This document shows, piece by piece, positions 1-18,034 of a stretch of DNA of 18,034 nt. The position numbers and the translations under genes were made by a program. The notes under the pieces were generated by a model that was given only the letters and a program-made list of their open reading frames with translations, did no database searches and was not told where the DNA came from. The stretch's first letter is position 1. Each line of letters begins with the position of its first letter. The stretch is from Synechococcus sp. (GTDB lineage Bacteria; Cyanobacteriota; Cyanobacteriia; Thermostichales; PCC-7336). The stretch is taken from NCBI GenBank assembly GCA_051439605.1, contig JBFRWN010000108.1, positions 1-18,034 of the forward strand. Reading direction: 5' to 3'.

Positions 1-20
1 ATTCATAGAACCTAGAGAGT

Positions 21-857: not shown

Positions 858-861
858 AACG

Positions 862-1251
862 CTACTCGCCACAATACACAATCAAATCGATCTCGACACT
901 CCCTCGGTCGGCCAATCCCAGTACCCCCACCGTGGTGCGAGAAGGTAGTCGTTCCGGTTGGAAGTAAGCAGCATACACTCGATTTGCGTCGTCGTAGTCG
1001 CGAAAATCCGTCAGAAAAATCCGCGCCATCACGACTTTATCGAAGCCCGCACCCGCATGTTCCAACACCAACTTGAGATTTTCCATCACTCGCCGGGTTT
1101 GTTCGGCAATGGGTCCCAAAATCAGCTCTCCCGTCTCAATATCCTCCGGTAGCTGACCGGTGACGAATAGAAAATCCCCCGCACGTACCGCATGGGAGTA
1201 AGGGGCAACAGGGGGCAACGTGCCGTCAGGTAGGGTGATGTACTCCAGCAT
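862..1251 (-). CDS. RidA/YjgF/UK114 family enamine/imine deaminase
   Basis: Motifs APYSHAVRAGDFLFVTGQLP, PSRTTVGV (conserved Arg) and VEIDLI; 129 aa; stop codon 4 nt upstream of the mutM start. Confidence 0.92.
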   Translation of the reverse strand: MLEYITLPDGTLPPVAPYSHAVRAGDFLFVTGQLPEDIETGELILGPIAEQTRRVMENLKLVLEHAGAGFDKVVMARIFLTDFRDYDDANRVYAAYFQPERLPSRTTVGVLGLADRGSVEIDLIVYCGE

Positions 1252-1363
1252 TCAAAGTCACAGAAGGTGAAGGGAACAGGAATAGGCACCGATAATTGCC
1301 ATCAATATTTTGCCTTGAGAATGGAGAAGTCTATGCTAGACAAAAATTAGCCTTAGGCAACAA

Positions 1364-2557: not shown

Positions 2558-2560
2558 GAA

Positions 2561-3727: not shown

Positions 3728-3741
3728 AGGGGTTTCAGCAA

Positions 3742-3757
3742 TGTTGTCCTGAATACA
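3742..3757 (-). promoter_or_regulatory. Possible NtcA-like site (TGT-N10-ACA; GTA-N8-AAC)
   Basis: Minus strand reads TGTATTCAGGACAACA, one mismatch to GTA-N8-TAC, about 15 nt upstream of the aapQ ATG. This is too close for a classical activator position. Confidence 0.25.
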
Positions 3758-4353
3758 GCATCAACATAGCCGCCATTAGCACCCCCCGCCGCCAATTTGC
3801 TCACACATTGATTCTGTTTTAAGGGCGATCTCGGGCATTAGACCAAATTCAGCCCACGCAGTCCTCGAGATAGGGAAGGGAGAGCTTCATAAATCGAGAT
3901 ATTGCGCAACAAGTTCTAGCAACGTATGAATCGATATCTCGCAGAGGCGATCGTCATCGGTTTCCTTGACTGACTCCGTACTCTGAGAAATATTTCTGAG
4001 CTGAGAATCACAAAAAGTGTAAAAAAGTGCATTTTTCTCGGTCACTTCCCGCAAAAAAAGCTGCACAACAGTTCTCATCGGCACCGTACTCTTTCTGAAG
4101 ACAGATTGTCGCTAATGCCTGACTTTAGACTCTAGGAAAGCTTCCTCTCTCCTCGCACTATGCAGCTACTCGAGTTTTTTCATTCCGGCCGCATCTGTTC
4201 CAACAGTCCTTGAATGCGACATCCAGTCGCAGAAAGACGCAGCTATTTCTCCCGAGTGCTAAGCAATCTGAGGAGGCTGCTTCCCCATAGATGGCTGGTA
4301 TGGACTCCGGGTTGCCCGCAATCACCTCTACCTTTATCAAGGAGAATTCTTCT

Positions 4354-4791
4354 GTGAATCTTTTCAAAAAACTAACCCGATCTCTAACGGCAATCGCCAT
4401 TGTCCTGATGGTTTTCTTGGCAGTAGGGGTTGGCCCTGCCCGAGCCGCAGATTGTTTTCAGACTGTTAAAGCTAATGTCCAGCAAGATGGGACATTTGCA
4501 GTGAAAGTTCAAGGTAAAATTCCTGCTGATGTTAGGGTCGGTTCAGCTGTTCTTAGTTTTCCAGCCTCAAGTGACAAGGGCACAATTGAGTCCATCAAAA
4601 TTGTCAACACAGATTTACCCTCATACCGTCAGCTTGAGTTTGGTTGCGGCCCTCTCACAGTAAGCGATGGTACTGACCTCATTACCGCCTGCGGTGGACC
4701 AGCTTATTTGGACAAAGGAAACACAATCTACAAAGCTTTTGGTTCCGAGTTCCCTCCGGGCGAAACCTTTAGCGTTTGCTTGGCAAAATAG
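4354..4791 (+). CDS. Hypothetical secreted protein, 145 aa, Sec signal peptide, 4 Cys
   Basis: AAGGAG at 4339-4344 precedes an in-frame GTG at 4354. N-terminus MNLFKKLTRSLTAIAIVLMVFLAVGVGPARA has n/h/c regions and an A-x-A site; the mature part looks beta-rich; a terminator follows. Confidence 0.8.
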   Translation: MNLFKKLTRSLTAIAIVLMVFLAVGVGPARAADCFQTVKANVQQDGTFAVKVQGKIPADVRVGSAVLSFPASSDKGTIESIKIVNTDLPSYRQLEFGCGPLTVSDGTDLITACGGPAYLDKGNTIYKAFGSEFPPGETFSVCLAK

Positions 4792-4837
4792 TTTGTTTTT
4801 AAGCATTCACTGAAATCTCGCCAGAGATGTCCCATGT

Positions 4838-4875
4838 AAAAAAGCGGAGGCCCCTACAAGGTAGCCTCCGCTTTT
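4838..4875. terminator. Bidirectional intrinsic terminator
   Basis: AAAAGCGGAGGC (4840-4851) / GCCTCCGCTTTT (4864-4875) is a perfect 12-bp inverted repeat with an A-run on the left and a T-run on the right, between convergent genes. Confidence 0.85.
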
Positions 4876-4946
4876 CGACGTTAAACTCTAAGCTCACAAG
4901 GAAAAATCAGCATAAGACTCACTCGCAGGCTTGTGACCCTCAACCA

Positions 4947-5975
4947 TTAACGAAAAGGAGGTGCATACAGCAACCCCCCATCGGTATAGGCTGCGTTGAG
5001 ACCGCGCTCCGTTAACCCTAAGGGAGCTAGGTGACGCTCGAATATCTCGGCATAGTTTCCTACGCCCTTGATGATACTCACTGCGAAATCGGCATCAACC
5101 CCCAAAATTTCCCCTAAGTTGCCTTCAACACCTAAGAATCGCCGGATGTTGGGATCCTCACTGTTCGCAATAAAATCATCGACATTTTCAGAGGTGATAC
5201 CTGCTTCTTCGGCGTAGAAAAGAGCGTACACGGACCAGTCCATAATGTCTGCCCACTGCTCGTCCCCTTGGGGCACTGATGGGCCGAGGGGTTCTTTGGA
5301 GATAATCTCGCTCAAAATGACGTGCTCGTCAGGGTTCGCCAGAGTTGAGCGGCGAGAAATCAGAGTACTTTGGTCGGAGGTATTGGTGTCGCAGCGGCCT
5401 TCGTCGTAAGCGGTATAGCTAGCGTCATCGGTGTCGAAGACCACCGCTTCAAATGCCAGACCGCGAGCGCGGAAAACATCTGCCAAATTCAGCTCGGTTG
5501 TTGTGCCGGCAATAATGCAGACGGTAGCGCCGTCCAACTCATCAACAGACGTCACCCCAAGAGACTTGGGTACCATGAACCCCTGACCGTCGTAGTAGGT
5601 GGTGGGGCCGTAGGTTGCCCCCCATTCCCGATCGCGGGTAAGGGTGTAGGTGGTGTTGCGGCTGAGCAGGTCTATGACCCCCCCTTGCAATGCCGACTGG
5701 CGGTTTGCAGAGGTTAGGGTGACGTATTCCACTTTGTCGGGGTCACCAGACACGGCTGCCGATACCGCCCGGCAAATATCGACATCAAAACCAAAGTGGT
5801 TTCCTTCGGAATCGACGCTACTAAAACCCGGTAACTGACCGTTAACGCCACATCGTAATTCTCCGCGCGCGCGCACTTGATCGAGAATCTGCGCTTGAGC
5901 CGTGCCAGCAGTTAAGCCTACTGCAACGGACAGCAATGCTGCCCCTGCCAAAGTAGTCAATGGATTAACCTGCAT
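4947..5975 (-). CDS. aapJ: General L-amino-acid ABC transporter substrate-binding protein (AapJ/BztA; NatF-like), 342 aa
   Basis: Motifs LDQVRARGELRCGV, GFDVDICRAV, LSRNTT, YYDGQGF, GTTTELNL, ISKEPLGP, VGNYAEIFERH and GGLLYAPPFR. The likely start is the ATG at 5975 (AGGAG at 5989-5993), followed by a signal peptide ending AQA. Confidence 0.93.
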   Translation of the reverse strand: MQVNPLTTLAGAALLSVAVGLTAGTAQAQILDQVRARGELRCGVNGQLPGFSSVDSEGNHFGFDVDICRAVSAAVSGDPDKVEYVTLTSANRQSALQGGVIDLLSRNTTYTLTRDREWGATYGPTTYYDGQGFMVPKSLGVTSVDELDGATVCIIAGTTTELNLADVFRARGLAFEAVVFDTDDASYTAYDEGRCDTNTSDQSTLISRRSTLANPDEHVILSEIISKEPLGPSVPQGDEQWADIMDWSVYALFYAEEAGITSENVDDFIANSEDPNIRRFLGVEGNLGEILGVDADFAVSIIKGVGNYAEIFERHLAPLGLTERGLNAAYTDGGLLYAPPFR

Positions 5976-6059
5976 CGTATGTTGAACTCTCCTGTAAGGT
6001 TGGGTTGCATCATTAAGTATTAACAGATCTGAGCTTTGCATTCCCAACAGGGGGGGGAC

Positions 6060-6075
6060 TGTTGCGATAGATACG
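6060..6075. promoter_or_regulatory. Possible NtcA-like site in the divergent aapJ/aapP intergenic region
   Basis: GTTGCGATAGATAC at 6061-6074 (GTA-N8-AAC on the minus strand); a weak -10-like GACAAT lies 21 nt downstream on the plus strand. Confidence 0.3.
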
Positions 6076-6175
6076 AAGGATAATCACCGTTGTCGGACAA
6101 TCTTGCTAGTATTTCCGCAATGGAATCGAATTATAGTCATACGCAAAGCTGACAAGTACAGACGTAGGATACGCC

Positions 6176-6961
6176 ATGAAAGTTCCCCAGGCTTCTGTTG
6201 ACAGTAAAGTTGAGAACGCTCCCAAGTCAGCCATCATCGAATGTATCGACGTGCACAAATGGTATGGGGAATTTCATGTCCTGAAAGGCATCAGCACAGA
6301 GATTAAAAAGGGTGAAGTGGTTGTGGTGTGCGGTCCTTCGGGATCTGGCAAGTCAACGTTCATTCGCACCATTAACCGGCTAGAAGAGCACCAACAGGGC
6401 ACGATTCGGGTTGATGGCATCGAACTTACCCATGACCTGCGCAACATCGATGCCATCCGTCGCGAGGTGGGAATGGTGTTTCAGTCCTTCAACTTATTTC
6501 CACATTTGACGGTGTTACAAAACGTCACCCTGGGTCCAGTTTGGGTGAAGAAAAACAAGCGAGGCGAGGCGAAAGCAAAAGCATTGGAACTTCTCGCTCG
6601 CGTGGGCATTGCCGAACAGGCTGATAAGTTCCCCGGTCAGCTTTCGGGGGGACAGCAACAGCGGGTGGCGATCGCCCGTGCGCTGGCCATGAATCCAACT
6701 GTCATATTATTTGACGAGCCTACCTCCGCCCTCGATCCTGAAATGATTAAGGAAGTGCTGGACGTTATGAAAGAGTTAGCTCGCTCTGGCATGACGATGG
6801 TATGCGTCACCCACGAGATGGGATTTGCCCGCGAAGTCGCTGACCGGATTATCTTTTTCGATCTCGGTCAGATTGTGGAAGAAAACACCCCCGAGGAATT
6901 CTTTACCAATCCGCGAGAAGAGCGCACCAAATTGTTCCTATCCCAGATCTTGTCCCACTAA
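6176..6961 (+). CDS. aapP: Polar amino-acid ABC transporter ATP-binding protein (AapP/BztD/GlnQ family; BgtA-like)
   Basis: Walker [10 protein letters not shown]-loop [12 protein letters not shown], signature [15 protein letters not shown], Walker [14 protein letters not shown], switch VTHEMGFA, and C-terminal [10 protein letters not shown]. Confidence 0.93.
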
Positions 6962-7168
6962 TGTCTTTAGCACTGTCAGCCTGTGTTCGGGTTTCTTCAG
7001 CGCTGGGACTTTGCAGGGTTGGGAGAATCTATTGCAGCAAAACGTTTCTCCACTTGCCAATGGTGGATTCAAACTATGCGTCGGGGAATGAAGGGGAGTT
7101 CGCTCGTACCCATGAATTCTTAGGAGTATACGGGCGATAGTCAAATTGTTCCCCCTCCTGACCTGCCA

Positions 7169-7912
7169 ATGTTGTCTCTCTCCCCCCCCGCTTTTTCACA
7201 TTCCTATGTTGTTCGTCCGCTGGCTGCAGTGGTTGCGGTTGCCCTCTCCGCGATAGCGGCTGTCCTCCCTTCTATGGCAGCTGAAGAGGTTACGATTTCC
7301 ACCAAACTCGGTAGCCGCTCCGTTGACACTCCCGAGCTAGAGCAATATGCGCGAACGGGTGAGGCGGATGGCACCCTGGGCTACTTCATCGCCGATTTGT
7401 CCAGTCACCAGCAGGACGTACTGCGACGCTCGCTGATCCAAGAAATCGATATCGATTTTCTACCATTTGCAAAGTTTGTTCAGTCGGACATGGGGAAAGT
7501 GGTGATAGAAAATTTGGCGGAGGGCATCGAACCTGGGGCCCCAAATGTGCTTCCAGAGCAAGCCTTGCGAGCAGCTTTGGTTGGTTCTGCAACCGATGGT
7601 TCGCTGTCTTTATTGGAGCTCGTGTCACGCTATCCCACCAGTGAAGTAGTGTTGGATTGGCCGGATATCCAGAGTTTAGCCCACGACTTTCAAGCAACCG
7701 GAGATTTTGCCACTGCGTTGGGTCTTCACCAGCTGCTATCAGATGGACTGGCTGCCAACTTGCTCAGCGTTCCTCTAAGCCTGTTCGCCCAACCTGCATC
7801 TGCCTCCCCCAGCAAATCCAATTTGAGTCCCCATGAACTGTTGGGGCTGCAGCGATCGCTGACTCAACTCCGTCAGGAATTAAACGGTGTAATGGAGGTT
7901 TTTGCAGAGTAA
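7169..7912 (+). CDS. DUF1400 domain protein with signal peptide, no hydrolase domain
   Basis: Hydrophobic N-terminus ending PSMA-AEEV, then RSVDTPELEQYARTG, SDMGKVVIENL, QALRAALVGSA and LSLLELVSRYPTSEVVLD, the pattern of cyanobacterial DUF1400. No GxSxG motif seen. Confidence 0.8.
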   Translation: MLSLSPPAFSHSYVVRPLAAVVAVALSAIAAVLPSMAAEEVTISTKLGSRSVDTPELEQYARTGEADGTLGYFIADLSSHQQDVLRRSLIQEIDIDFLPFAKFVQSDMGKVVIENLAEGIEPGAPNVLPEQALRAALVGSATDGSLSLLELVSRYPTSEVVLDWPDIQSLAHDFQATGDFATALGLHQLLSDGLAANLLSVPLSLFAQPASASPSKSNLSPHELLGLQRSLTQLRQELNGVMEVFAE

Positions 7913-7989
7913 CGCTGATATGAATTAATAAGACTGGGTGCCATCCAAACCGTCCGGCGCGCCCACACCTATAGCTGTTGCCCAATCAA

Positions 7990-9234
7990 TCAGGCACGAA
8001 TACTGTGCCATAAGTTTAAATACTGTCTAGCCTCCGACTCGGGCAGCGGGTCAAGTAGTTCTGCGCGATCGAGAATATCCTCCTGGAATGTGTGCCGCCC
8101 TCTTAGGACATCCGGTAATTGTTCGGGAGAGATCGCAATGGGGTTCGGTAAGCGGCTTGCCACTGCAGCGCGCCGGGGAACGTCCCCACTCAGCAGATAG
8201 TCAAACCACGACAGGGTTGCTGTTTGTAATTCCTCCATGGGAACCTCGGTGTTGAGGCGGCGGGGCATCACCCACAAATCCCACCACAATGCAGTACCAG
8301 ACTGCGGTACGACCACTTCAAACCGTCGGTCTAACTTGGGCAATTGATATAAATCGCTGCTCCACCCCACTACTACCGCCGCATCCTTCAACAGCATTGC
8401 CGGTAGATAGCGATTGGAGCTGTAGATCAACACCTGCTTGTGTAAGGCGTTAAGTCGGTTTTCCACGTTGGCAGTTAAACCCGATAGCGGCGTGTTGTAG
8501 GACTGACCGATAGATTTGAGGATCAGACCCACCACTTCACGAGGGTTATCGGGAAGGACCACTTTTTGGGCCAAATCTGGTCGCCACAAATCCCCCCAGT
8601 CAGAAATGGGTTCTGTCACCTGCTGGCGATCGTAGGCAATTGCTGTAACCCCCCAGCTCCAGGGCAGCCCCCAAATTTGTCCCTGCCGTTCGGCTGCCTG
8701 CAACCAAAATTCAGGTAATCGGTCTTGCAAGGTTTTTCGAAAGTTCGAGGCATTGAGGGGCAAGAGTAATTCTTGGGCAATCGCCGTATCCAGCCAGTCC
8801 GATCCCAGCAAAGAGATAGACATCATCGGTGGAGAAGGAAACATCGCTTGCCTGAGCTTAGACAGCCATCCCTGTTGAGTTTTATCAGTGCTGTCGTCTG
8901 AGTTGGCTCCTCCATCTGGAGAAGTGGACTGAATACGCTGGAATAGTTCGTTGCGATTTGCCACAGGTACAGCTTGAAGGGGTAGGGAGCTCATGGCTTT
9001 GTACTCCCGCCAAATACTGCCTGGAAAACTGTCCTCTAATGTGGCAATTTGCAGCATCAATTGCCGATCGCTTCCACATCCTGACAGTGCGGTAGAGGAA
9101 AGTGCTACCGCCAGTGCCTGCAAAAACTTTCGTCTAGTTTGAGATGGAATGATTCTTGAGGGGGCTTGAGGTAAACTGCCCGTTTCGGGTGGGGAAGAGG
9201 CAATGGGTGAGAAGCTCTCCGAAGGAACGTTCAT
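7990..9234 (-). CDS. PotD/PotF-like (polyamine-type) extracellular solute-binding lipoprotein
   Basis: Tat motif TRRKFL and lipobox LSGC; motifs WGLPWSWGVTAIAY, ISDWGDLWRPDL, VVGWSSD and VPQSGTALWWDLWVMP. Confidence 0.85.
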   Translation of the reverse strand: MNVPSESFSPIASSPPETGSLPQAPSRIIPSQTRRKFLQALAVALSSTALSGCGSDRQLMLQIATLEDSFPGSIWREYKAMSSLPLQAVPVANRNELFQRIQSTSPDGGANSDDSTDKTQQGWLSKLRQAMFPSPPMMSISLLGSDWLDTAIAQELLLPLNASNFRKTLQDRLPEFWLQAAERQGQIWGLPWSWGVTAIAYDRQQVTEPISDWGDLWRPDLAQKVVLPDNPREVVGLILKSIGQSYNTPLSGLTANVENRLNALHKQVLIYSSNRYLPAMLLKDAAVVVGWSSDLYQLPKLDRRFEVVVPQSGTALWWDLWVMPRRLNTEVPMEELQTATLSWFDYLLSGDVPRRAAVASRLPNPIAISPEQLPDVLRGRHTFQEDILDRAELLDPLPESEARQYLNLWHSIRA

Positions 9235-9235
9235 G

Positions 9236-9661
9236 CTAGAGGCCTTGCTGCTGTAAATACCGCTCGATCAGGATTTGGGCCACAATATCGTCGATGGGGC
9301 GAGGGGGTTCTCGCATCCCCAACGGTATCAGCCTCTGTAGGCCTTTAGCGGGGTAAATCGCCCAATAGCGCTGCCGAGCCTCCTGCGAGCTGAACCGCTC
9401 GTCGATAGGATGAATGGTAAGGGAAGGAAACGCACTCAACAGCCGTTTCTGCCATTGACGGGCGGTGGTTTGGTTACCCATCACAAAGTCGATAGGCTGC
9501 CCTGAACCGAAGTAAAATTCGTCAAATAGCTCCTGCAGGCGGCTTTCAACGTCTGACGATCGCAGGATTTCACGGTGAAGGATCTTCCCATCGGTAGTGG
9601 CGATCGCCACGCCACATTTGTCTCGACCGGGGTCGAAGCCGACTAATCGTTGGGGGTTCAT
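9236..9661 (-). CDS. YqgF/RuvX-family RNase H-fold nuclease (cyanobacterial paralog)
   Basis: Motifs GFDPGRDKCGVA, VMGNQTT, IDERFSSQEAR and IDDIVAQILIERYL; directly downstream of DUF3084, as is common in cyanobacteria. Confidence 0.87.
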   Translation of the reverse strand: MNPQRLVGFDPGRDKCGVAIATTDGKILHREILRSSDVESRLQELFDEFYFGSGQPIDFVMGNQTTARQWQKRLLSAFPSLTIHPIDERFSSQEARQRYWAIYPAKGLQRLIPLGMREPPRPIDDIVAQILIERYLQQQGL

Positions 9662-9755
9662 CAGAGCTTGACTATTGCATAGCTAATGGAGTCTGAATTA
9701 ACAGGCAAAGGGTCCCCGCGCGTCCACAATAGCGAATTCTGAATGAGGGGGTGAC

Positions 9756-11600
9756 CTAGCTGGGTCGCGGGAAAGTGGAACTCCCCTCAGTTGATTGAAT
9801 TTCGCTGGACACTAAATCCACCTCCAGAGGACCAGACGTGTAAATATCCCGTTGGGCCACAACCTGCACTTGCTGAGGCTCATCAATCCGTCGCAGAGTC
9901 TGGACCAGCTCGAACAGTCGGGATTGGGAAAACTCCCCAACAGTTCCGGAGCTCGAGTTAAACACGATCCCTTTACTGCGCGATAGTTGTCCGGCCTCTA
10001 AAAAGAGTCGTACCAGCGTTGCTTCAATATCTTCATCCGACCCCCCCGGGGATACGGCTGTTTCGGCCAATACGGTACCCTCCGTAAATAGGAGTCTATT
10101 GGGAATCACGCCTGTGATCACCGGTACGGGCTCCCCCACGAGGCGGTTGGTGAGGGAATAAACCTGTACCACCCAGCTGCCTGGGGACGAAACCGCCTGG
10201 ATAGTACGAGTCACTTCGGGAACACGAATCTGAATAGCTCTACCCCCAGCATTTTCGGGACTTGCCCCCAGCGCTCGGGCTCGTCGCTCAGCGATCGCGA
10301 ATAAAGTATTTAATCCTTGTTGAATCTCTCTTGAAGTCATGCCCCCTTCAATCACCCCTGTGGCCATCGGTTCCCCCGCTAATACAGCAAATTCTCCTCG
10401 GCGCAATCGATCTGCCACCGTTGTCAAATTGGCAATATCCATCTCCAAATTGGATTTTTGAGATTGCAATTCGCTCAGTTCCGACTCGGTATCCTGTAAT
10501 GACGATTGCAACTCGTCGACCCGCGCACGAGCAGAAGCGGCCTCTGATTCCGCCTGCTGAGTTTCCTGACGTGCGGCATTCAAAGAAGCTTGAGCTTCGC
10601 TCAGTCGCTGACTGGCCGCCTCTAATTCTTGATTGGCATTCAGTAATGCTGCCTCAGCTACCTGCTGCTGCTGACGCAGCTGGGCCTGCTCGTTCGTGAG
10701 TTGTTCAACTTTGGTTTCGGCTGCAAGCCTCTCAGTTTCAAGGTTAGAAAGCTGCCCTTGAATAGAGTCAATGTTGCCCTCAAGCATAAGAATCGTGGAT
10801 TGGAATTCATTCACTCGCTCGCCGTAGCGAAACAGGGCATCTCTGATGGCTTCGTTGGTCAGCAGGAGTACACCCACTGAAGAGGCCGAGATGATAATTC
10901 CCGTCAGAATGGTGATCACGATAGCGGTGTGTCGGGGCCGCATATTGAACCAACTCAGCCGTTTCTTGCCGATGCGGTATCCCAACCGATCGCCCACAGT
11001 GGCAATCACACCACTCAACACCAGGATGTAAAAGACAAATAGAACCCCCTGCATGCGCTGCCAGCGACTGGGTTCCTGAGTGATGATTTCTGGTGTCTCC
11101 TTGGCCTCATTTCGATCATCTAAAATGCTTGCCCCAGCTGGCTGTTTTATCTGCAGAGAGTCTCCATCGGTTAGCGGTGATTCGTCTCCAGGTTGGGGAT
11201 TCTCGTCAAGTTTAGGCTCGTCAATACTTTGGGCAATCCAGGCAGATGGTCGCTGGTGCAGCGATTGGGTCGGAGCCAGTGGGGGGGAGAACTGAGTTGC
11301 TAGCCCATCCGATCGGCTTAATGATGTGTCGGATACTGGAGTCGCTCTACTCGATAGCTGCACAGCCCCCCCCCACAAAACTGCCGAGATCGCCAGACTG
11401 ACCACCAGCACACGCAATAAGTGTGTTCGTTTCGAGCTGCTACATTTTGTTCCGTAAGGACTCAAATCGCACTTCAGACAAAAAAGGCACATTTTTTTGC
11501 AGGCTGAAAACGTGTTGAAACGATGGCATGAGATAGCAACCAGCCCAACAATGACAATAGCGATCGAAAGTATTTGCAAGGCCTGCATGAGGACTGCCAC
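9756..11600 (-). CDS. DUF3084 domain membrane-anchored coiled-coil protein; start uncertain (conserved core begins at ATG 11054)
   Basis: LSGVIATVGDRLGYRIGKKRLSWFNMRPRHTAIVITILTG is the DUF3084 N-terminal signature. A long Q/E/A/L coiled coil follows, and the C-terminus has AQRDIYTSGPLEV. The frame is open for 182 codons upstream of the core. Confidence 0.85.
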   Translation of the reverse strand: MAVLMQALQILSIAIVIVGLVAISCHRFNTFSACKKMCLFCLKCDLSPYGTKCSSSKRTHLLRVLVVSLAISAVLWGGAVQLSSRATPVSDTSLSRSDGLATQFSPPLAPTQSLHQRPSAWIAQSIDEPKLDENPQPGDESPLTDGDSLQIKQPAGASILDDRNEAKETPEIITQEPSRWQRMQGVLFVFYILVLSGVIATVGDRLGYRIGKKRLSWFNMRPRHTAIVITILTGIIISASSVGVLLLTNEAIRDALFRYGERVNEFQSTILMLEGNIDSIQGQLSNLETERLAAETKVEQLTNEQAQLRQQQQVAEAALLNANQELEAASQRLSEAQASLNAARQETQQAESEAASARARVDELQSSLQDTESELSELQSQKSNLEMDIANLTTVADRLRRGEFAVLAGEPMATGVIEGGMTSREIQQGLNTLFAIAERRARALGASPENAGGRAIQIRVPEVTRTIQAVSSPGSWVVQVYSLTNRLVGEPVPVITGVIPNRLLFTEGTVLAETAVSPGGSDEDIEATLVRLFLEAGQLSRSKGIVFNSSSGTVGEFSQSRLFELVQTLRRIDEPQQVQVVAQRDIYTSGPLEVDLVSSEIQSTEGSSTFPRPS

Positions 11601-11825
11601 AGGTTACGCAGATCCTATCACCCACATTTGATGGGGCAAGAGAAGCTGATTGATTCAGTGATATCTGCGATGGATACGCTCTTGGAGGAGACCCATTCTC
11701 AAAAACAAGGTTCAGACAGAGTAATACAGGGTCGATTAACAGAAAAATATTAACCAAACACCCTAACTGCGCAGAAATGCTTGGCTACAAAGCAAGAGAG
11801 ATTTCAAGCTGAGAGATTACTCGGC

Positions 11826-12245
11826 CTACTCTTCTATTGTCACGGAAATAATGCGATCGCCTCGACGAATGGAGTTCACCACATCCATGTCTTCAGTTTT
11901 GCCAAAGACTGTATGGACTCCATCCAGGTGACGCTGTGGAGAGTGACAAATAAAGAACTGGCTGCCACCCGTATTGGGACCAGCATGCGCCATAGATAGG
12001 GAACCAGCCAAATGCTTGTTGGAGTTAATTTCACAGTCGATGGTATATCCCGGTCCACCAGAACCGGTACCGTTGGGGCATCCCCCCTGAATCATGAAGT
12101 TCGGAATGACACGGTGGAAATTAAGTCCATCGTAGAACCCCTTCTTGGCCAGATCTATGAAATTCTGAACGGTGTTCGGTGCATCTTCAGCGAACAGCTC
12201 TAGATTGATGACCCCTTTCTCGGTGTTCATTGTTGCGCGTGGCAT
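11826..12245 (-). CDS. Cyclophilin-type peptidyl-prolyl cis-trans isomerase
   Basis: Motifs [43 protein letters not shown] and [18 protein letters not shown] upstream. Confidence 0.96.
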
Positions 12246-12666
12246 AGTTACACTCCTGACATTGGCGATCTACCGATCGCTCTTGTTTAGATCGTGACTC
12301 AAGCACTGAGGTTTCAAGGGCAACGCAAGCTGTTTGTCATCCAATCAACGTTGCCAACTTATAGGTCTCTAATCTATGAGATAACGCCCAAAAGACGGTG
12401 ATTAGCTTCAACCAAGCGTTCCTATCGAGATCCTATACTGCGGTGCAGGAATCATCCTCATACTGCGGATCGAAGGGTCACTATTGCAAGTCTAGGGTTC
12501 GTTTTTAAAAGATCGATGTCAATTTCTGAGCGCTAGACGCTGTCTTCACCAACGGGGTCAAAACTCAAGCGGCCATGTTCAAGCACCTGAGAGACTCGGT
12601 TACTTTGCAAAAGTTTGCGGAAATAGAGCTTCTCTCAAGATTAGGGATTGCATTACGTTAATTAGC

Positions 12667-12696
12667 TTGTTGTAGTCACTTACCAAGGGCTAGAAT
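12667..12696 (+). promoter_or_regulatory. Candidate sigma70-type promoter for the reductase gene pair
   Basis: TTGTTG (12667-12672), 18-nt spacer, TAGAAT (12691-12696). Confidence 0.4.
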
Positions 12697-12943
12697 TATC
12701 AGCCGGTATGACTGTTGACTCCTAGAGTAAGCCAGTCGCAGCAGAGTTTTGTTTTCTCTATCAGAAGCTCCACTGTTTGCGGCCTGTCAGTCATCCCAAC
12801 TTAAAAGACTCAGGGGATAATCCCCTTCGCCGAGTTGCGACGCCTTACAGTGTCGTTACGACTGATGAAACTCCAATGAAACTGGAACCCGTTCAAGTCC
12901 CATCTCATCTCGCGCGAACTAGCATTAGAGGAACAGCAGAACA

Positions 12944-15280
12944 ATGGCCGATCGAAAACCATCCCTGACTTGGAAAAGCGTCTTGGGCAACAAGATTTCT
13001 GACCGGTTGGCCGAGGAAATCGATACGTTTGAAAGTCAGATGGAACTGCGAAAGCAGGGCAAAATTGACGAAAAAGTATTTGCGGAACTGCGCCTTCGTC
13101 GCGGAGCCTACGGCCAGCGCTACGACAACGGCTATAGGGACGATGGCGAGCGATCGCGGGAACTTGAATTTCCGAACAAGACTCTCATGAAAGGCCCTGG
13201 CACGCTCTACGAGGCACCAGGTATGCAGCGCATCAAATTGCCTTACGGTGGCCTCAATGCCGAGCAAATGGAGGTGATGGCCGATATCGCTGAAGAATAT
13301 TCCGACACCATCATTCACATCACCACCCGCCAGGATGTCCAACTGCACTTCCTCTCCCTGGACGACACCCCTGATATGCACCGTCGTCTGGCAGCTGTCG
13401 GCATTACCACCCGCGAAGCTTGCGGCAACTCGGTGCGAAATGTTACCGCTTGCCCCCTATCCGGCGTTTGCCATGACGAGTCCTTTGACGTGACGGGCTA
13501 TGCTAACGAATTAGCACAGTACTTCCTTGGCCATCCCGACGTTCAAGACTTCGGTCGCAAATTGAAAGTGGCCTTTTCCGGTTGCGCCGACCATCCCTGC
13601 GGTCTCACTTCCATGCACGACCTGGGGTTGATTGCCAAAACTAAGGTCATCGATGGCAAAGAAGTGCAGGGCTTTGAGATGTATGTGGGTGGCGGTCTGG
13701 GTGCCGTGCCACATTTGGCCAAGCTGTTCTCTGAATTTGTCACCCCAGAAGAACTGCTGCCTCTATCTCAAGCGATCTTCCGCGTATTTGCCCGCCTGGG
13801 TGAAAAGGCAAACCGCAATAAGGCTCGCATCAAGTTCTTGGTTGGCAAGTTGGGCATTGACGAGTTCCGCCGTCTGGTCATGGAGGAGCGCGCAACCCTA
13901 CCGAACGATCCTGAATGGACCAGCTGGCTAACAGACATCCAGCAGTATGAAGAAGCCGGATCCCCTGCGGCAGTTTCCCCCAACGAGACTCCGGTAGACG
14001 CGGATGCCTTTGCCAAGTGGAAGTCCACCAACATCTATCAGCAGCGCCAAGCTGGCTACGTCGCAGTCACCATCCCGCTGCCATTGGGAGATATGACAGC
14101 TACCCAAATGCGTCGGTTGGCAGATGTAGTTCGCCGCTTCGGCTACGAAGAGCTGCGCACCACCGTCGAGCAAAACCTGTTGATGCGCTGGATTCACGAG
14201 TCTGACCTACCCGCCCTCTATAATGCGCTCCATGCCATTGACTTGGCGGCGGCAGGGGCAGAATCAATCGTGGATATTGTGGCATGCCCCGGTACAGACA
14301 CCTGCAAGCTGGGGATTTCCAGCTCCCGTGGATTGGGGGGGGAACTTATGCGCCGTCTGGCGGTGAAGGGTTGGCAGTATGACGAAGCCGTGAAGAACAT
14401 CCGCATCAAGGTTAGCGGTTGCTTCAATTCTTGCTCTCAGCACACGGTGGCCGAGATTGGCTTCTATGGGGCGAACCGTCTTGTCGATCGCCACCGCGTT
14501 CCCCACTTTCAGCTCATCTTAGGGGGCACGTGGGATAAAAACGCCGCTGAATACGGCCAGTCCGTTGCGGTTGTTCCCTCAAAGCGGGTTCCCGATGTGG
14601 TCGAATTCCTGGTGGATATGTACATGCAGGAGCGGGAAGGGAAGGAAAAATTTAACGAGTTCGTGAAGCGCATCGGTAAGAAGACCATTCGCGATCGCGT
14701 GCAACCCTTTCTGGCTGTCCCCAGCTATGCGGAAGACAAATCTTTCTACACCGACTGGGCTGACAACCGCGAATATACTCTGGGGGATATCGGCATCGGC
14801 GAATGTGCCGGTGAAGTGGTAACCCTAACTGACTTTGGGGTGGCAGCTGCCGAAAGTATTCACTTCGATGCCACTATTCTGCTGGAGGAAACCCCGACCA
14901 ATGGCAACGTTAAGCAGGCGGCCGATAAAGCGTTGGAATCCATGCTGAGTGCAGCTCAAGCTTTGGTCAAGATTCAAAATATTGATATTGCCAACGACGC
15001 AGACAGCATTGTGGCTGAGTTCCGCAAGTATTTCTACGATACGGAGTTGTTCTTCGACCCCTTTGCCAAGGGTAAGTTTGCCAGCTACCTGTTCAAGGCT
15101 TACGACGCACGAAACCAGCCAGTGACGATTGACCGCGCCAAACAGCTGATTGAAGAGGCTCGTCTGTTTATTGAGGCGGCCCACTCCTGCAATGCCCGCA
15201 TGGTTGAGGGTGGTATCACCACGCCTGCAGGGTTCCAACGTTGGTTGAACGAAAAGCAGCTACAAACCAGCGGTAGCTAA
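12944..15280 (+). CDS. Siroheme/[4Fe-4S] nitrite/sulfite reductase family protein with C-terminal helical extension (probably a sulfite reductase)
   Basis: First ferredoxin-like half has MQRIKLPYG, HITTRQDVQ, ACGNSVRN and RKLKVAFSGC; RNKARIKF follows. Second half has LRTTVEQN, CPGTDTC and KVSGCFNSC (CX5C...CX3C siroheme-cluster ligands). GAGG RBS at 12928. Confidence 0.9.
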   Translation: MADRKPSLTWKSVLGNKISDRLAEEIDTFESQMELRKQGKIDEKVFAELRLRRGAYGQRYDNGYRDDGERSRELEFPNKTLMKGPGTLYEAPGMQRIKLPYGGLNAEQMEVMADIAEEYSDTIIHITTRQDVQLHFLSLDDTPDMHRRLAAVGITTREACGNSVRNVTACPLSGVCHDESFDVTGYANELAQYFLGHPDVQDFGRKLKVAFSGCADHPCGLTSMHDLGLIAKTKVIDGKEVQGFEMYVGGGLGAVPHLAKLFSEFVTPEELLPLSQAIFRVFARLGEKANRNKARIKFLVGKLGIDEFRRLVMEERATLPNDPEWTSWLTDIQQYEEAGSPAAVSPNETPVDADAFAKWKSTNIYQQRQAGYVAVTIPLPLGDMTATQMRRLADVVRRFGYEELRTTVEQNLLMRWIHESDLPALYNALHAIDLAAAGAESIVDIVACPGTDTCKLGISSSRGLGGELMRRLAVKGWQYDEAVKNIRIKVSGCFNSCSQHTVAEIGFYGANRLVDRHRVPHFQLILGGTWDKNAAEYGQSVAVVPSKRVPDVVEFLVDMYMQEREGKEKFNEFVKRIGKKTIRDRVQPFLAVPSYAEDKSFYTDWADNREYTLGDIGIGECAGEVVTLTDFGVAAAESIHFDATILLEETPTNGNVKQAADKALESMLSAAQALVKIQNIDIANDADSIVAEFRKYFYDTELFFDPFAKGKFASYLFKAYDARNQPVTIDRAKQLIEEARLFIEAAHSCNARMVEGGITTPAGFQRWLNEKQLQTSGS

Positions 15281-15308
15281 GCTCGAGCTGGCTGAAAACA
15301 TAATTTAA

Positions 15309-15328
15309 GCCGAGTTATCCGACTCGGC
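15309..15328 (+). other. Intercistronic stem-loop without U-tract
   Basis: GCCGAGT/ACTCGGC 7-bp stem plus a U-G pair, between the reductase stop and the next RBS; more like a stability or processing hairpin than a terminator. Confidence 0.5.
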
Positions 15329-15360
15329 ATTGATTCTCAAGACCAAACTGGAGTAATACG

Positions 15361-15930
15361 GTGGATCTCGATCGCTTCTGCGTCAAATTCTTTGCCACTT
15401 CTGGAGCCAATATTGACGAAGCCCACTACATTAATATCTTTCACGAGTGGATTCGTAAGGATGCCATCGACGGCCTGTTATTGGATGTCGTGGATTACCG
15501 CCACGTTCCCAACGGCCCGGGCATCATGTTGATTTCAAACGAAACCAACTACGCAATGGACCGCGAGGGGGGCGAGTTTGGGGTTTACGCCCAGCGCAAG
15601 CTAGGGGGCGGCGAAACTCATACCGACAAGATTGTGGAGTTAGTCAGAGCGACTGCTAAGTTTGGCTCTTTGTTGGAGTCCGATAGCCGTCTAGAAGGCG
15701 AATTTCGTCTAGATGGTAGCGGCTTTCTGTATATGACGAACGATCGCCTCAACGCCCCAAATACGGATGAAACCTTTGCCGAACTAAAGCCCGATTTAGA
15801 GGCAGCTGCAGCGGCCCTATATCCTGGTAAAGCTGTGACGGTGACTCGCATAGAGAACGATGGGCGCGATCGTCTGTCTGCCCGCGTATCGGTGGCCGAA
15901 TCAGTTAAAGTGGCTGCGCTGGCAGCATAG
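15361..15930 (+). CDS. Hypothetical cytoplasmic protein, 189 aa, likely co-transcribed with the reductase
   Basis: GGAG RBS 7 nt before the GTG start; globular composition; motif-like blocks IFHEWI, LLDVVDYRHVPNGPGIMLI and NDRLNAPN. No family recognised. Confidence 0.85.
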   Translation: MDLDRFCVKFFATSGANIDEAHYINIFHEWIRKDAIDGLLLDVVDYRHVPNGPGIMLISNETNYAMDREGGEFGVYAQRKLGGGETHTDKIVELVRATAKFGSLLESDSRLEGEFRLDGSGFLYMTNDRLNAPNTDETFAELKPDLEAAAAALYPGKAVTVTRIENDGRDRLSARVSVAESVKVAALAA

Positions 15931-15999
15931 GTGAGTTGTTAACTGGCTTCATCCTTGATGGCATCAACTGATTTTTCTAGTGGTGAAGGCGGAAAGCTA

Positions 16000-16008
16000 T
16001 GGTAGTGT
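16000..16008 (+). promoter_or_regulatory. Candidate extended -10 (TG-n-TAGTGT) for the tRNA
   Basis: TGGTAGTGT lies 19 nt upstream of the mature tRNA 5' end. Confidence 0.35.
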
Positions 16009-16027
16009 ATGTATCGCACTACCTCAC

Positions 16028-16109
16028 GCGGACGTGGCGGAATTGGTAGACGCGCTAGATTTAGGCTCTAGTGGAGCAATCTGTGAGAGTTCGAGTCTCT
16101 CCGTCCGCA
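16028..16109 (+). tRNA. tRNA-Leu (anticodon UAG), CCA not encoded
   Basis: Acceptor GCGGACG/CGTCCGC with discriminator A; D arm GCGGAATTGGTAGACGC; anticodon stem CTAGA/TCTAG with loop TTTAGGC; long variable arm; T arm GAGAG-TTCGAGT-CTCTC. Confidence 0.97.
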
Positions 16110-16143
16110 TCTGTAAGTTAAGGTCAATTAATCAGTCGATTGC

Positions 16144-16171
16144 AGCAGCTATTCCCTCATAACTAGCTGCT
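16144..16171. terminator. Possible terminator hairpin between the convergent tRNA and birA
   Basis: AGCAGCTA (16144-16151) / TAGCTGCT (16164-16171) 8-bp inverted repeat; the U-tract is weak. Confidence 0.45.
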
Positions 16172-16194
16172 TAAGCACTCTGATGCTGGTGCGG

Positions 16195-16989
16195 CTATAG
16201 TTCGTAGCCTAACTGTACTTCCCCAGATTGAAAGGCGCGCATCTCACCCGCCAGATTTACCTGCAATTGACCATCCCGTGCCACCCCAACCACTGTTCCC
16301 ATGCGATCGCCAATCGTAATTGGGCAATCGCGATACACCATCAACGATATGTAGCTAGGATTCAACCCTGCCAATCCTACTTGCTTCCAAGCCTCGTAAC
16401 CCCGCTCAATACCAGCTAAAACCGCCATCGCCGCATCTTGAGCGATCGCCCGACGGTCTGGACATGCTCGTTCTCCCAAAACATCCAGCAACGAAATTCC
16501 CACCTCTGGAGTGGAATTGTAGACGTTCAAACCCACCCCAGCCACCACTGATTCCGCGTGGCCTCCCACCAGCTGAGACTGCAGCAGCACGCCCCCCAAC
16601 TTTCGGCCTACCAGCATTAAGTCATTCGGCCATTTCAGCTGCACATCCAGTGCTTGCCAAGCGCGTAACTGCAAAGCAATCCCCCAGGCAACGGCGAGCG
16701 TCAGCTCTAGTAACTCTGACGCCGCCACCTGCGGATACAGCAAAACAGAAGCATACAGCCCCCCTGGCGATGACTCCCATCTGTGGCCCCGTTGCCCTTT
16801 GCCACTCATTTGCCGAGCGGAGATTGCGGTCGTCCCCTCTGGTAGCTTTCTACCCACGCGATCGGGCCAGGTATTCTTGGCCCAGTCAGCCAATAGTCTG
16901 TTGGTTGAGTCCAACTGGCAAAATTGCAGCAAATGCCGACCGCAATATTTCGTGCGCAAACTTTCTTGGAACTGGATGGGGTTGAACAT
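16195..16989 (-). CDS. birA: Biotin--[acetyl-CoA carboxylase] ligase (class I, no HTH)
   Basis: Motifs LDSTN, QMSGKGQRGHRWES, KWPNDL, KLGGVL and GVGLN, plus a C-terminal SH3-like segment GVARDGQL. Confidence 0.95.
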   Translation of the reverse strand: MFNPIQFQESLRTKYCGRHLLQFCQLDSTNRLLADWAKNTWPDRVGRKLPEGTTAISARQMSGKGQRGHRWESSPGGLYASVLLYPQVAASELLELTLAVAWGIALQLRAWQALDVQLKWPNDLMLVGRKLGGVLLQSQLVGGHAESVVAGVGLNVYNSTPEVGISLLDVLGERACPDRRAIAQDAAMAVLAGIERGYEAWKQVGLAGLNPSYISLMVYRDCPITIGDRMGTVVGVARDGQLQVNLAGEMRAFQSGEVQLGYEL

Positions 16990-17164
16990 GGATGGAATTC
17001 AGAAACCAGCAGCCACTCTAGCCGAAAACTTGAATCTAAACATGACATCATGGCCACTCTGAATTATGCCGCCACCTTTGTGCCAGTTGACTGTTCCACA
17101 ACGATAGAACGGCAACCACAATAGAGATACGTGTGGTGTAGGACGAATCAGTCAAACCAAAGTA

Positions 17165-17647
17165 ATGCGTCGATCGGCCAATCACCAAACCTGGATGCGA
17201 CGGGCGATCGCCCTGGCTGCAAATGCAGGTGCTGCAGGAGAAGTCCCTGTTGGCGCGTTGGTGGTGGATGGTTCGGGCAACCTGCTGTCAGAGGCAGAAA
17301 ACCGGCGGGAACGGGACTGCGATCCCACCGCTCATGCAGAAATCCTTGCCCTGCGGTGGGCGGGGGAGCGCCGCCAAGATTGGCAGCTAACCGGCTGTAC
17401 TCTTTACGTCACTTTAGAACCCTGCCCTATGTGTGCCAGTGCGATCTCCCAGGCGAGAATTTCCAGATTAGTCTACGGAGCCGACGATCCCAAGGCCGGT
17501 GCCATCCGAAGCGTCCTCAATTTGCCCGCCAGTGCGGCTTCGTTTCATCAACCCGAGACCATTGGCGGAATCTTAGAAGACGACTGCCGAGAGCAACTGC
17601 TGGAATGGTTCCAGGTACTTCGTCAGGCTCCAAAAAAGCATCGATGA
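17165..17647 (+). CDS. tadA: tRNA adenosine(34) deaminase
   Basis: Motifs GEVPVGA, DPTAHAE, LYVTLEPCPMC and YGADDPKAGA. Confidence 0.94.
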   Translation: MRRSANHQTWMRRAIALAANAGAAGEVPVGALVVDGSGNLLSEAENRRERDCDPTAHAEILALRWAGERRQDWQLTGCTLYVTLEPCPMCASAISQARISRLVYGADDPKAGAIRSVLNLPASAASFHQPETIGGILEDDCREQLLEWFQVLRQAPKKHR

Positions 17648-17681
17648 TAGCTGCTGGGGTAGTTTGTCGATCGGCCCCTAC

Positions 17682-18034
17682 TCAGCTGCCCTTCACCTTG
17701 GGCTCTAAGAAGCCCCCTGCTTTGGGAACGCGACCACTCGTTTGAGGCAAAGCCACTTGCTTCGTTATGGGTTTAGCAGCAGGCACATTAGTAGCCCTGG
17801 ACTTCGGCATTCTGGGCAACGAAGTTGAGGAGGCTGGCAACACCACTTGGTTGTCATCAGCCTGCTGCGTTATCACCTCAAAAGCTTCTGGTACGCTCTC
17901 ATCTTTCACAACAGGGACCCTGACCACCTGGGCTCCTGAAAGAGCATCTTCAGCCTGCGGGACCAAAGCAGAGTCATCGTCATCGGTTTCATGGGGGGCA
18001 GCAAGTTCAGGTTCTGACTGTCTAGCAGCATCTA
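17682..18034 (-). CDS. 3' end of a CDS running off the window; acidic/Pro-rich low-complexity tail, unidentified
   Basis: The frame stays open from the window edge (DAARQSEPELAAPHETDDDDSALVPQ...) to the stop at 17682; convergent with tadA. Confidence 0.7.
   Translation of the reverse strand, partial: DAARQSEPELAAPHETDDDDSALVPQAEDALSGAQVVRVPVVKDESVPEAFEVITQQADDNQVVLPASSTSLPRMPKSRATNVPAAKPITKQVALPQTSGRVPKAGGFLEPKVKGS

Follow-up and report, generated by a model that had tools for sequence, protein, structure and literature searches.

A long-form siroheme reductase genetically linked to an unnamed 189-aa protein, a likely assimilatory sulfite reductase in a Synechococcus genome

Introduction

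[quoted passage not shown] How it is catalysed has been thought settled, with ferredoxin-dependent Sir in phototrophs, CysIJ in enterobacteria and SirA in actinobacteria. A stretch of 18,034 nucleotides from Synechococcus sp. (assembly GCA_051439605.1, contig JBFRWN010000108.1, positions 1 to 18,034 of the forward strand), referred to here as the window, carries a gene for a 778-aa siroheme reductase (the long form) and, directly behind it, a gene for a 189-aa protein of no recognised family (the partner). What does this enzyme reduce, and does the small protein belong to it? An initial annotation of the window took the pair for an uncharacterised redox module of a cyanobacterium, in which a distinct and probably horizontally acquired reductase would be served by a dedicated accessory subunit, such as an electron adaptor, a maturation factor or a sulfur-handling protein. 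A search of the literature other than subscription journals and supplements found no paper on either protein. Here we argue that the long form is probably, if by no great measure, the only assimilatory sulfite reductase of this genome, and the 189-aa protein its tightly bound, cofactor-less second subunit.

The reductase belongs to a separate clade

Pfam recognised two copies each of NIR_SIR (185 bits) and NIR_SIR_ferr (132.7 bits) in the reductase, far above their cut-offs and within residues ~94-586, which together build two tandem repeats, each consisting of a ferredoxin-like half-domain and a NIR_SIR domain, the arrangement that identifies this superfamily. Repeat 2 contains CPGTDTC ... 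GCFNSC (CX5C ... CX3C), the canonical ligands of a siroheme-coupled [4Fe-4S] cluster (C448, C454, C493 and C497). These four residues are kept in all seven enzymes aligned, including NirA, canonical Sir and proteobacterial CysI, and are Cys in 76-78 of 79 aligned long forms. They also align to the cluster region of 1zj8, the Mycobacterium tuberculosis NirA/SirA, which is the closest solved structure (phmmer, E 4.9e-47, with two matching stretches that take in both repeats).

The protein nevertheless falls below the equivalog cut-off of every one of the 11 NCBIfam families tried. Its best match is the 'NirA family protein' NF007126 of the SirA type (269.1 bits, cut-off 523), followed by NirA NF007125 (220.2 bits, cut-off 594), CobG TIGR02435 (175.4 bits, cut-off 234.8), CysI NF010029 (158.8 bits, cut-off 457), Sir TIGR02042 (114.6 bits, cut-off 731.5) and CysI TIGR02041 (105.8 bits, cut-off 756.55), with only 57 bits to dsrB and 28 bits to dsrA (cut-offs 341-393). 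A quick IQ-TREE phylogeny of 35 sequences, with supports from the Shimodaira-Hasegawa-like approximate likelihood ratio test (SH-aLRT) and no bootstrap, took in 20 long forms and five canonical cyanobacterial Sir, together with the NirA of the window's genome and named reference enzymes taken from plasmid records, with CobG left out. All 20 long forms made up one clade (SH-aLRT 99-100), next to which stood a 728-aa Bacteroidota relative (93) and then the proteobacterial CysI of the DUF934 type (81). Canonical Sir grouped with CysI (SH-aLRT 100), apart from both the long clade and NirA, and the genome's own NirA grouped with a haloarchaeal ferredoxin-nitrite reductase. The low family scores and the separate clade thus agree with the proposal of a distinct reductase clade, and place the protein inside neither canonical Sir nor NirA. 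The canonical lengths on which that proposal drew also hold, as cyanobacterial Sir sits in frames of ~596-715 aa in most families (598-605 aa in one small-genome family) and carries KFHGSYQQ, and the genome's own NirA occupies a 579-aa frame. Horizontal acquisition is plausible, given the patchy occurrence of the long form in cyanobacteria and the 67-69% identity between the window protein and copies from Anaerolineae.

The partner is linked to the reductase in at least eight phyla

Linkage was followed from both genes. From the reductase side, a scan of one genome per species yielded at least 598 relatives, of which the 80 best loci were analysed. These loci come from at least eight phyla (Cyanobacteriota, Chloroflexota, Planctomycetota, Myxococcota, Latescibacterota, Acidobacteriota, Verrucomicrobiota and Actinomycetota), and the partner lies directly downstream on the same strand in 73 of them. 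Five of the seven misses are contig ends and two are true (L034 and L065), and both genomes concerned carry the partner elsewhere, in one case unlinked and in the other behind a second long-form paralog. From the partner side, a long reductase lies directly upstream in 72 of 80 metagenome loci, and the remaining eight have less than 200 nt of upstream DNA. In addition, of 201 genomes sampled from the phylum to which the window belongs, four contain the partner and the same four contain the long C-terminal domain of the reductase, the two being adjacent there. A partner dedicated to this reductase, as first suggested, is therefore supported, and partner homologs detached from the reductase were not the pattern seen from either side. 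The pair is not peculiar to cyanobacteria, however, being found in at least eight phyla.

The Acidobacteriota genome with the second paralog (G207; L065 and L124) has two long forms, the second of which is 52% identical to that of the window, and only one of them has the partner behind it.

A confident complex is predicted for the two proteins

Modelling the pair as a complex had been proposed from the outset. For the full-length reductase with the partner, the interface score ipSAE (interaction prediction score from aligned errors) was 0.93 (0.92, 0.93 and 0.93 in the individual runs), whereas the best of three controls reached 0.25. The mark applied to ipSAE is reached by 116 of 157 solved complexes and by 2 of 215 mismatched pairs, counts that can be transferred only roughly to this case because custom unpaired alignments were used. 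The models show 88-93 contacts, with at least 97% agreement in contacts between runs, and the predicted local distance difference test (pLDDT) score of the partner is 93. Binding of the partner to the reductase is thus predicted, and the prediction passes its controls.

On the reductase, the modelled interface involves the N-terminal extension (residues 7-10, 13, 59-60, 65, 67-69, 74-76, 90 and 92), both ferredoxin-like half-domains (residues 110-138 and 380-390), a segment near the cluster ligands C448 and C454 (residues 452, 462-463, 466 and 469) and the start of the C-terminal linker (residues 606-609). On the partner it coincides with an invariant patch (residues 41-53, 78, 80, 127-131 and 169-171) and takes up almost all of the invariant polar residues of that protein, namely D42, D45, Y46, H48, N63, Q78, K80, N127, D128, R129 and R171.

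The pair probably stands in for canonical Sir

The genome of the window is 99.98% complete and contains only two NIR_SIR genes, the long form and a NirA-like gene on contig C47. No Sir above the TIGR02042 cut-off was found in it, while the control search finds Sir in Synechococcus elongatus; PAPS (3'-phosphoadenosine-5'-phosphosulfate) reductase and ATP sulfurylase are both present. The question of separate sir and nirA genes, raised by the initial annotation, is thus answered with a NirA-like gene and no canonical Sir. In the sample, canonical Sir occurs in 81 of 86 genomes of the same class and is missing from the four that carry the pair. It is also missing from four of five further cyanobacterial carriers, or eight of nine overall, and the cyanobacterial carriers keep a separate NirA-like gene. 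As this genome encodes ATP sulfurylase, PAPS reductase and NirA and no canonical Sir, the pair is most likely a housekeeping assimilatory sulfite reductase standing in for canonical Sir, as far as gene content can tell. It is thus probably the main enzyme rather than an extra one.

Other phyla give a similar picture. In five carriers the long form is the sole NIR_SIR gene, one fragment at a contig edge apart, and no CysJ above the cut-off was found in these five. Its neighbours outside the cyanobacteria include PAPS reductase (L024, L072), siroheme-synthesis genes (L024, L049, L054, L058, L072), pyridoxal-phosphate enzymes of cysteine and methionine metabolism (L041, L082) and uroporphyrinogen methyltransferase.

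Three observations stand beside these results. One genome of the same class (G111, 99% complete) has no canonical Sir (E<=1e-100), long form or partner, for which an assembly gap or a third way of reducing sulfite would be possible. In G210, a 7.9-Mb cyanobacterial metagenome-assembled genome (MAG), the long form and a canonical Sir occur together with a NirA-like gene, and an 846-aa frame contains a fourth NIR_SIR gene. In three Chloroflexota loci (L049:780-2114, L054:826-2154 and L058:812-2143), proteins of 443-445 aa precede the pair beside parts of siroheme synthase; they contain two CbiX domains and a DR2241 domain, and two of the three also contain a Fer4_23 Fe-S domain.

Marks of the long clade

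The long form departs from its relatives at several places. Where canonical Sir has KFHGSYQQ, residues 49-60 of the window reductase read LRLRRGAYGQRY, and this motif is followed by a clade-specific insertion of 32 residues that opens with YGQRY-DNG and is missing from the 728-aa Persicobacter relative, a 541-aa Sphingomonas enzyme, NirA and canonical Sir. In repeat 1, four extra cysteines (C170, C176, C214 and C219) fall exactly opposite C448, C454, C493 and C497 when the two repeats are aligned (E 3e-14). Of the 79 aligned long forms, drawn from at least eight phyla, 78 have Cys at each of these positions and one row is gapped, and all four cysteines are missing from the six comparison enzymes. 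In the canonical hemoprotein SiRHP, a linker occupies the pseudo-symmetric cofactor site (PMC11947256). Since four invariant extra cysteines mirror the ligands of repeat 2, and given that linker-filled site, we predict a second [4Fe-4S] cluster in repeat 1 of the long form.

Behind repeat 2 follows a linker with the motif G-D-x-G-x-G-E-C-A-G-E, which is invariant in all 31 C-terminal regions aligned from several phyla; its C621 is Cys in 77 of 79 long-form rows, and the linker has low pLDDT when the C-terminal region is folded by itself. The terminal domain, modelled by AlphaFold2 (AF2) at pLDDT 87.6, appears to have the HEPN fold, an up-down helical bundle. VIA-align matched it to 2hsb (Z 15.6, root-mean-square deviation 3.0, 119 aligned residues), and the next four matches were HEPN proteins as well (Z 13.0, 12.8, 12.4 and 11.7). 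The top Foldseek matches were likewise HEPN (TM 0.74 normalised to the target), and Atlas features assigned the domain to HEPN clusters at 0.89. A nuclease role of this HEPN-like domain was considered and rejected because the HEPN nuclease motif Rx4-6H is not conserved in it: the window has R740-x6-H747, R740 varies among close and distant homologs, and among 79 rows position 747 is occupied 55 times by His, 21 times by Tyr and twice by Arg. The window carries all five marks of the module, that is, the YGQRYDNG insertion, the extra cysteines, the GECAGE linker, the HEPN-like tail and the partner downstream, and has them in common with the loci surveyed above.

Some relatives show a subset of these features. 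The 728-aa protein on plasmid CP012860.1 of Persicobacter sp. JZB09 (L114:3929-6115; 35% identity) keeps the Cys of the GECAG linker and the long C-terminal region, and the four extra cysteines and the N-terminal insertion are missing; siroheme-synthesis genes, not the partner, come after it. Atlas also contains clusters joining HEPN, TusA and NIR_SIR in Nitrospirota, Nitrospinota and Bacteroidota.

The partner represents an unnamed protein family

The partner had been described as unrecognisable, and searches of Pfam, NCBIfam and PDB sequences (the last to E<=10) indeed returned no match; an SHD1 match in 5 of 36 family members (best E 8e-4) looks like chance. Among 166 close homologs, wherever a source supplies a name it is 'hypothetical protein'. 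At E<=1e-3 the family takes in 1525 of 1.84 billion cluster representatives, almost all of these family members being ~190 aa long, and Atlas places the partner in unnamed clusters only, commonest in Acidobacteriota. Its AF2 model (pLDDT 92.2, predicted TM score 0.90) has an alpha+beta fold for which Foldseek found no PDB match at E<=1e-3, the best being AdoMetDC/prozyme (1.1e-3, TM 0.40), and a wide VIA-align search gave TBP (Z 6.7), then the phosphoglucomutase C-domain, AdoMetDC and BamC, all below 8.

In the alignment of homologs the family has no conserved Cys, position 7 being Cys in most members and Ala in several, and no cofactor motif. Because of this lack of a conserved Cys, a role as a persulfide-type sulfur carrier or as an Fe-S electron carrier is unlikely, which speaks against the persulfide form of the sulfur-handling protein suggested earlier. 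Since nearly all invariant polar residues sit in the modelled interface and no Cys is conserved, a structural or docking role is likelier for the partner than that of an enzyme, an Fe-S protein or a persulfide carrier.

Two further identities were excluded. The partner is not a copy of the C-terminal domain of the reductase, although both are 189 aa long (BLASTP E 4.7), nor, by sequence and profile comparison, is it DUF934 (PF06073), as 36 homologs had no Pfam hit to it at E<=10 and hhalign of the partner profile with a DUF934 protein gave a probability of 0.07%. No believable fusion of reductase and partner was found among the forms searched. A 481-aa candidate (P0305), which joins a C-terminal fragment of the reductase to the partner, has lost the last HEPN helix to unrelated sequence, is likely a frameshift artefact and was not used. 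Longer partner forms amounted to two singletons, fused to PF14261 or NTP_transferase, which were not used as evidence either.

The locus and its expression in a relative

The two open reading frames (ORFs), the 80-nt spacer, the divergent cyclophilin gene and the tRNA gene all lie where they had been placed (Table 1). The reductase starts with ATG and the partner with GTG, which aligns with the Met of 35 homologs. Both a hairpin lacking a clean T run and a GGAG resembling a ribosome-binding site, 7 nt ahead of the GTG, had been noticed in the spacer and are present there.

Table 1. Features of the pair and of the adjoining DNA, in positions of the window.
Feature	Position	Strand	Evidence
Long-form siroheme/[4Fe-4S] reductase gene, 778 aa, predicted catalytic subunit	12944..15280	+	ORF, Pfam, tree
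N-terminal extension, residues 1-93, with LRLRRGAYGQRY	12944..13222	+	alignment
Clade-specific insertion, residues ~61-92	13124-13219	+	alignment of relatives
Repeat 1 segment, residues 160-219: C160 and extra C170, C176, C214, C219	13421..13600	+	internal repeat alignment
Repeat 2 segment, residues 448-497, canonical cluster ligands	14285..14434	+	alignment of 7 enzymes, 79 long forms
Linker, residues 588-624, GDxGxGECAGE (C621 at 14804-14806)	14705..14815	+	alignment
HEPN-like helical domain, residues ~625-754	14816..15205	+	AF2 model, VIA-align, Foldseek, Atlas
Spacer, exactly 80 nt, with hairpin and GGAG	15281..15360	+	sequence, pattern scan
Hairpin of 8 bp, then ATTGATTCTC	15309-15328		sequence, pattern scan
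GGAG	15350-15353		sequence
Partner gene, 189 aa, unnamed family, predicted tightly bound second subunit	15361..15930	+	homologs, AF2, linkage, complex score
ORF, 166 aa	4291-4791	+	
DUF3084 protein	9756-11600	-	Pfam
Cyclophilin, divergent	11826-12245	-	Pfam Pro_isomerase, 3.6e-42
Non-coding stretch, ~700 nt	12246-12943		
tRNA-Leu	16028-16109		
ORF, 204 aa	17131-17745	+	

A Pfam scan of 18 ORFs of the window recovered Fpg, RidA, an ABC transporter, DUF1400, a solute-binding protein, RuvX, DUF3084, cyclophilin and BirA, and none of the nrt, narB or cys genes, in line with the isolation of the pair that had been pointed out. Two of the ORFs, of 166 and 204 aa, had no Pfam match at E<=1e-3. The non-coding stretch between cyclophilin and reductase is unusually long; no riboswitch or other Rfam family matched it at gathering score, and the one match of a simple promoter scan fell inside the partner gene, with none ahead of the reductase. 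The order DUF3084 protein, cyclophilin, reductase, partner is common to the window and a cyanobacterial MAG (L023, with the DUF3084 gene at L023:2-1642 (-)), whose reductase is 92% identical to that of the window.

Transcription was followed in a relative (G157), whose stretch is contained in 14 RNA runs from five studies. Three stranded raw-read runs of one further study gave unbroken sense coverage of ~100-1700x from the 3' part of the reductase through the spacer into the partner, with no start peak inside the spacer. Both genes are real, as conserved homologs, the high-confidence partner model and the RNA of this relative over both of them attest. Directly downstream of the partner, G157 has a 6S/SsrS RNA (RF00013; L015:2797-2979 (+); 66.3 bits, gathering score 46.4), which is the most abundant RNA of the stretch (~3400-5700x); the window has tRNA-Leu at the equivalent place.

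Discussion

The reading that we favour, and hold to be probable by a modest measure, is that of a sulfite reductase with a permanent second subunit. Like other assimilatory enzymes, the long form would turn sulfite into sulfide at a siroheme, here that of repeat 2, and the electrons would most likely come from ferredoxin, because CysJ was not found in the five carriers of other phyla. According to the model, the partner would clamp the N-terminal extension with its insertion, both ferredoxin-like half-domains (the 'parachute'), the loop of C448 and C454 and the start of the linker. The four cysteines of repeat 1 may hold a second [4Fe-4S] cluster at the pseudo-symmetric site that is filled by a linker in canonical enzymes, and the GECAGE linker and the HEPN-like tail would be part of the same clade-specific equipment.

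Several points weigh against this reading. The pair is known here from computational evidence, and the substrate, be it sulfite, nitrite or another, is not readable from sequence. The complex score is the model's own confidence, obtained from unpaired alignments, and the reductase side of the interface is only slightly more conserved (0.74) than the whole protein (0.69). The second cluster is read from aligned cysteines, not from measured geometry. The partner fold gives no function, because all of its matches lie within the range of common arrangements. The relative that supplied the RNA is only 64-65% identical in the C-terminal domain and 51-53% in the partner, and its raw reads come from one study. 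G210 has a canonical Sir (1052 bits) besides the long form, so that replacement of Sir is not universal. One genome (G206) has reductase and partner unlinked. Finally, the Bacteroidota relative from Persicobacter has the HEPN-like tail and the partner neither nearby nor on its 859-kb record, so that the partner is not needed by every long enzyme.

Among the alternatives, the most serious concerns electron entry: the partner might be an adaptor or gate that shapes or covers the ferredoxin docking site near the [4Fe-4S] cluster, setting donor specificity or regulating the entry of electrons. The predicted contacts at residues 452, 462-463, 466 and 469, beside C448 and C454, and those in the N-terminal region are where such a protein would be expected, as maize SIR binds ferredoxin between its N-terminus and domain 2 near the cluster, and the N-terminal 80 residues of the E. 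coli enzyme hold its reductase partner (PMC11947256). The lack of CysJ above the cut-off in five carriers fits as well, as does the proposal by Price et al. (10.1101/072470) that DUF2849 and DUF934 proteins are an electron source and an accessory protein to a CysI that lacks CysJ. The partner has no redox cofactor motif, however, and the same partner occurs in many phyla, in phototrophs as well as in heterotrophs, whose ferredoxin sets differ. We regard an adaptor as unlikely, if still a candidate to be reckoned with.

If the partner were instead a transient factor for maturation or assembly, which binds the apo-enzyme to help insert siroheme or Fe-S clusters or fold the long subunit and then leaves, it would equally do without a cofactor motif of its own. 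Tight synteny and a confident predicted interface would also be expected of a dedicated chaperone, and in Chloroflexota the pair often lies among siroheme-synthesis genes. Two considerations speak for a lasting association instead, neither of them decisive: in the relative, RNA covers the partner and the reductase to a depth of similar order, whereas a helper acting catalytically is usually scarcer, and a large predicted interface (~90 contacts) that includes the clade-specific insertion suits permanent contact. A maturation factor therefore has, in our estimate, a low probability.

That the long enzyme reduces another substrate (nitrite, hydroxylamine, or sulfite for detoxification), with sulfite being assimilated by another route, seems quite improbable. 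It would agree with the failure to reach any equivalog cut-off, with the canonical Sir retained in G210 and with G111, which at 99% completeness has neither type and shows that the lack of a recognisable Sir occurs. But the carriers keep a separate NirA-like gene, eight of the nine cyanobacterial carriers checked are without canonical Sir, and in other phyla the long enzyme adjoins PAPS reductase and Cys/Met enzymes and is the sole NIR_SIR gene of five carriers. Mere operon neighbours with no physical or functional tie are very improbable: adjacency by itself is weak evidence and the pair is unlinked in G206, but the linkage is two-way over at least eight phyla while other neighbours vary, both exception genomes keep the partner, the same 4 of 201 phylum genomes carry both genes, and the complex prediction passes its controls.

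If the sulfite reductase with a bound second subunit is the right reading, it would constitute a fourth, widespread arrangement, for which annotation pipelines give only 'nitrite/sulfite reductase' and 'hypothetical protein'. It would supply functional context for an unnamed protein family of ~1500 clusters at 50% identity, account for the apparent lack of sir in some cyanobacteria, and yield two testable predictions, that the enzyme is a stable assembly of two subunits and that it contains a second Fe-S cluster. Metabolic models and sulfur-cycle gene surveys based on Sir and CysI profiles would miss the long enzyme, and the extra cluster site bears on the evolution of monomeric assimilatory enzymes from symmetric ancestors. 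A bolder hypothesis, which we consider possible rather than probable, is that the pair represents a class of assimilatory sulfite reductase not described before, in which a catalytic subunit with two clusters forms a heterodimer with an obligate beta subunit that has no cofactor and belongs to a new family. With an Fe-S site in both pseudo-symmetric repeats, the catalytic subunit would be like a living intermediate between DsrAB-type and monomeric enzymes. Many Chloroflexota, Acidobacteriota, Myxococcota, Latescibacterota, Planctomycetota and Verrucomicrobiota would have no sulfite reductase other than this class, which would also have displaced canonical Sir in several cyanobacterial lineages.

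Comparison with known systems

Canonical Sir of cyanobacteria and plants (TIGR02042) belongs to the same superfamily and most likely shares its reaction and metabolic place with the long form, and the two are almost mutually exclusive in the cyanobacterial genomes checked. It differs in a large insertion in repeat 1 and in KFHGSYQQ, and has neither the extra cysteines nor the C-terminal domain. The NirA/SirA of M. tuberculosis (1zj8), a ferredoxin-dependent sulfite reductase, has the monomeric two-repeat siroheme/[4Fe-4S] fold that is also seen in the long form. SirA has 566 aa, and its phmmer match starts at window residue 94 and includes nothing past residue 578; at the positions of C170, C176 and C214 it has Ser, Glu and Leu, and it is not known to us to have a partner gene. 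Opposite C160 of the long form it has a conserved Cys (EACG). Y56 and C160, both invariant in the long clade, would match what we take to be the Cys-Tyr pair in the title of Schnell et al. (2005).

The nearest named clade after the Persicobacter-type enzyme, and the nearest genetically tested relatives, are the proteobacterial CysI that work without CysJ, with DUF2849 upstream and DUF934 downstream, as in the Sphingomonas cluster cobA-DUF2849-reductase-DUF934-PAPS reductase. The two architectures agree in concept, these enzymes likewise standing beside small proteins of unknown chemistry, within clusters for sulfate assimilation. In Price et al. (10.1101/072470), cofitness data indicate that the small DUF2849 and DUF934 proteins are needed for sulfate assimilation and CysI for growth on sulfate, and the two small proteins are proposed as electron source and accessory protein. 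These enzymes share part of the N-terminal region with the long form, tblastn matches starting at residues 18-29, but at 541-577 aa they have no 61-92 insertion, extra cysteines, GECAGE linker or HEPN-like tail.

A second subunit held through the N-terminus has a precedent in the E. coli holoenzyme SiRHP-SiRFP (CysI-CysJ), in which the first ~80 residues of the hemoprotein bind the stable second subunit (PMC11947256), and the predicted interface with the partner also uses the N-terminal extension. CysJ is a large diflavin reductase that delivers electrons, whereas the partner has 189 aa and no cofactor motif.

In keeping four cysteines in each repeat, the long form resembles DsrAB. Both homologous halves of DsrAB keep Fe-S ligand sets. 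DsrAB, however, is a heterotetramer of two chains with inserted ferredoxin domains, while the window protein is a single chain found in assimilatory contexts. Similarly, the C-terminal domain appears to share its bundle with HEPN proteins such as AF_0298 (PDB 2hsb), but here it is fused to a metabolic enzyme rather than belonging to a defence or toxin system.

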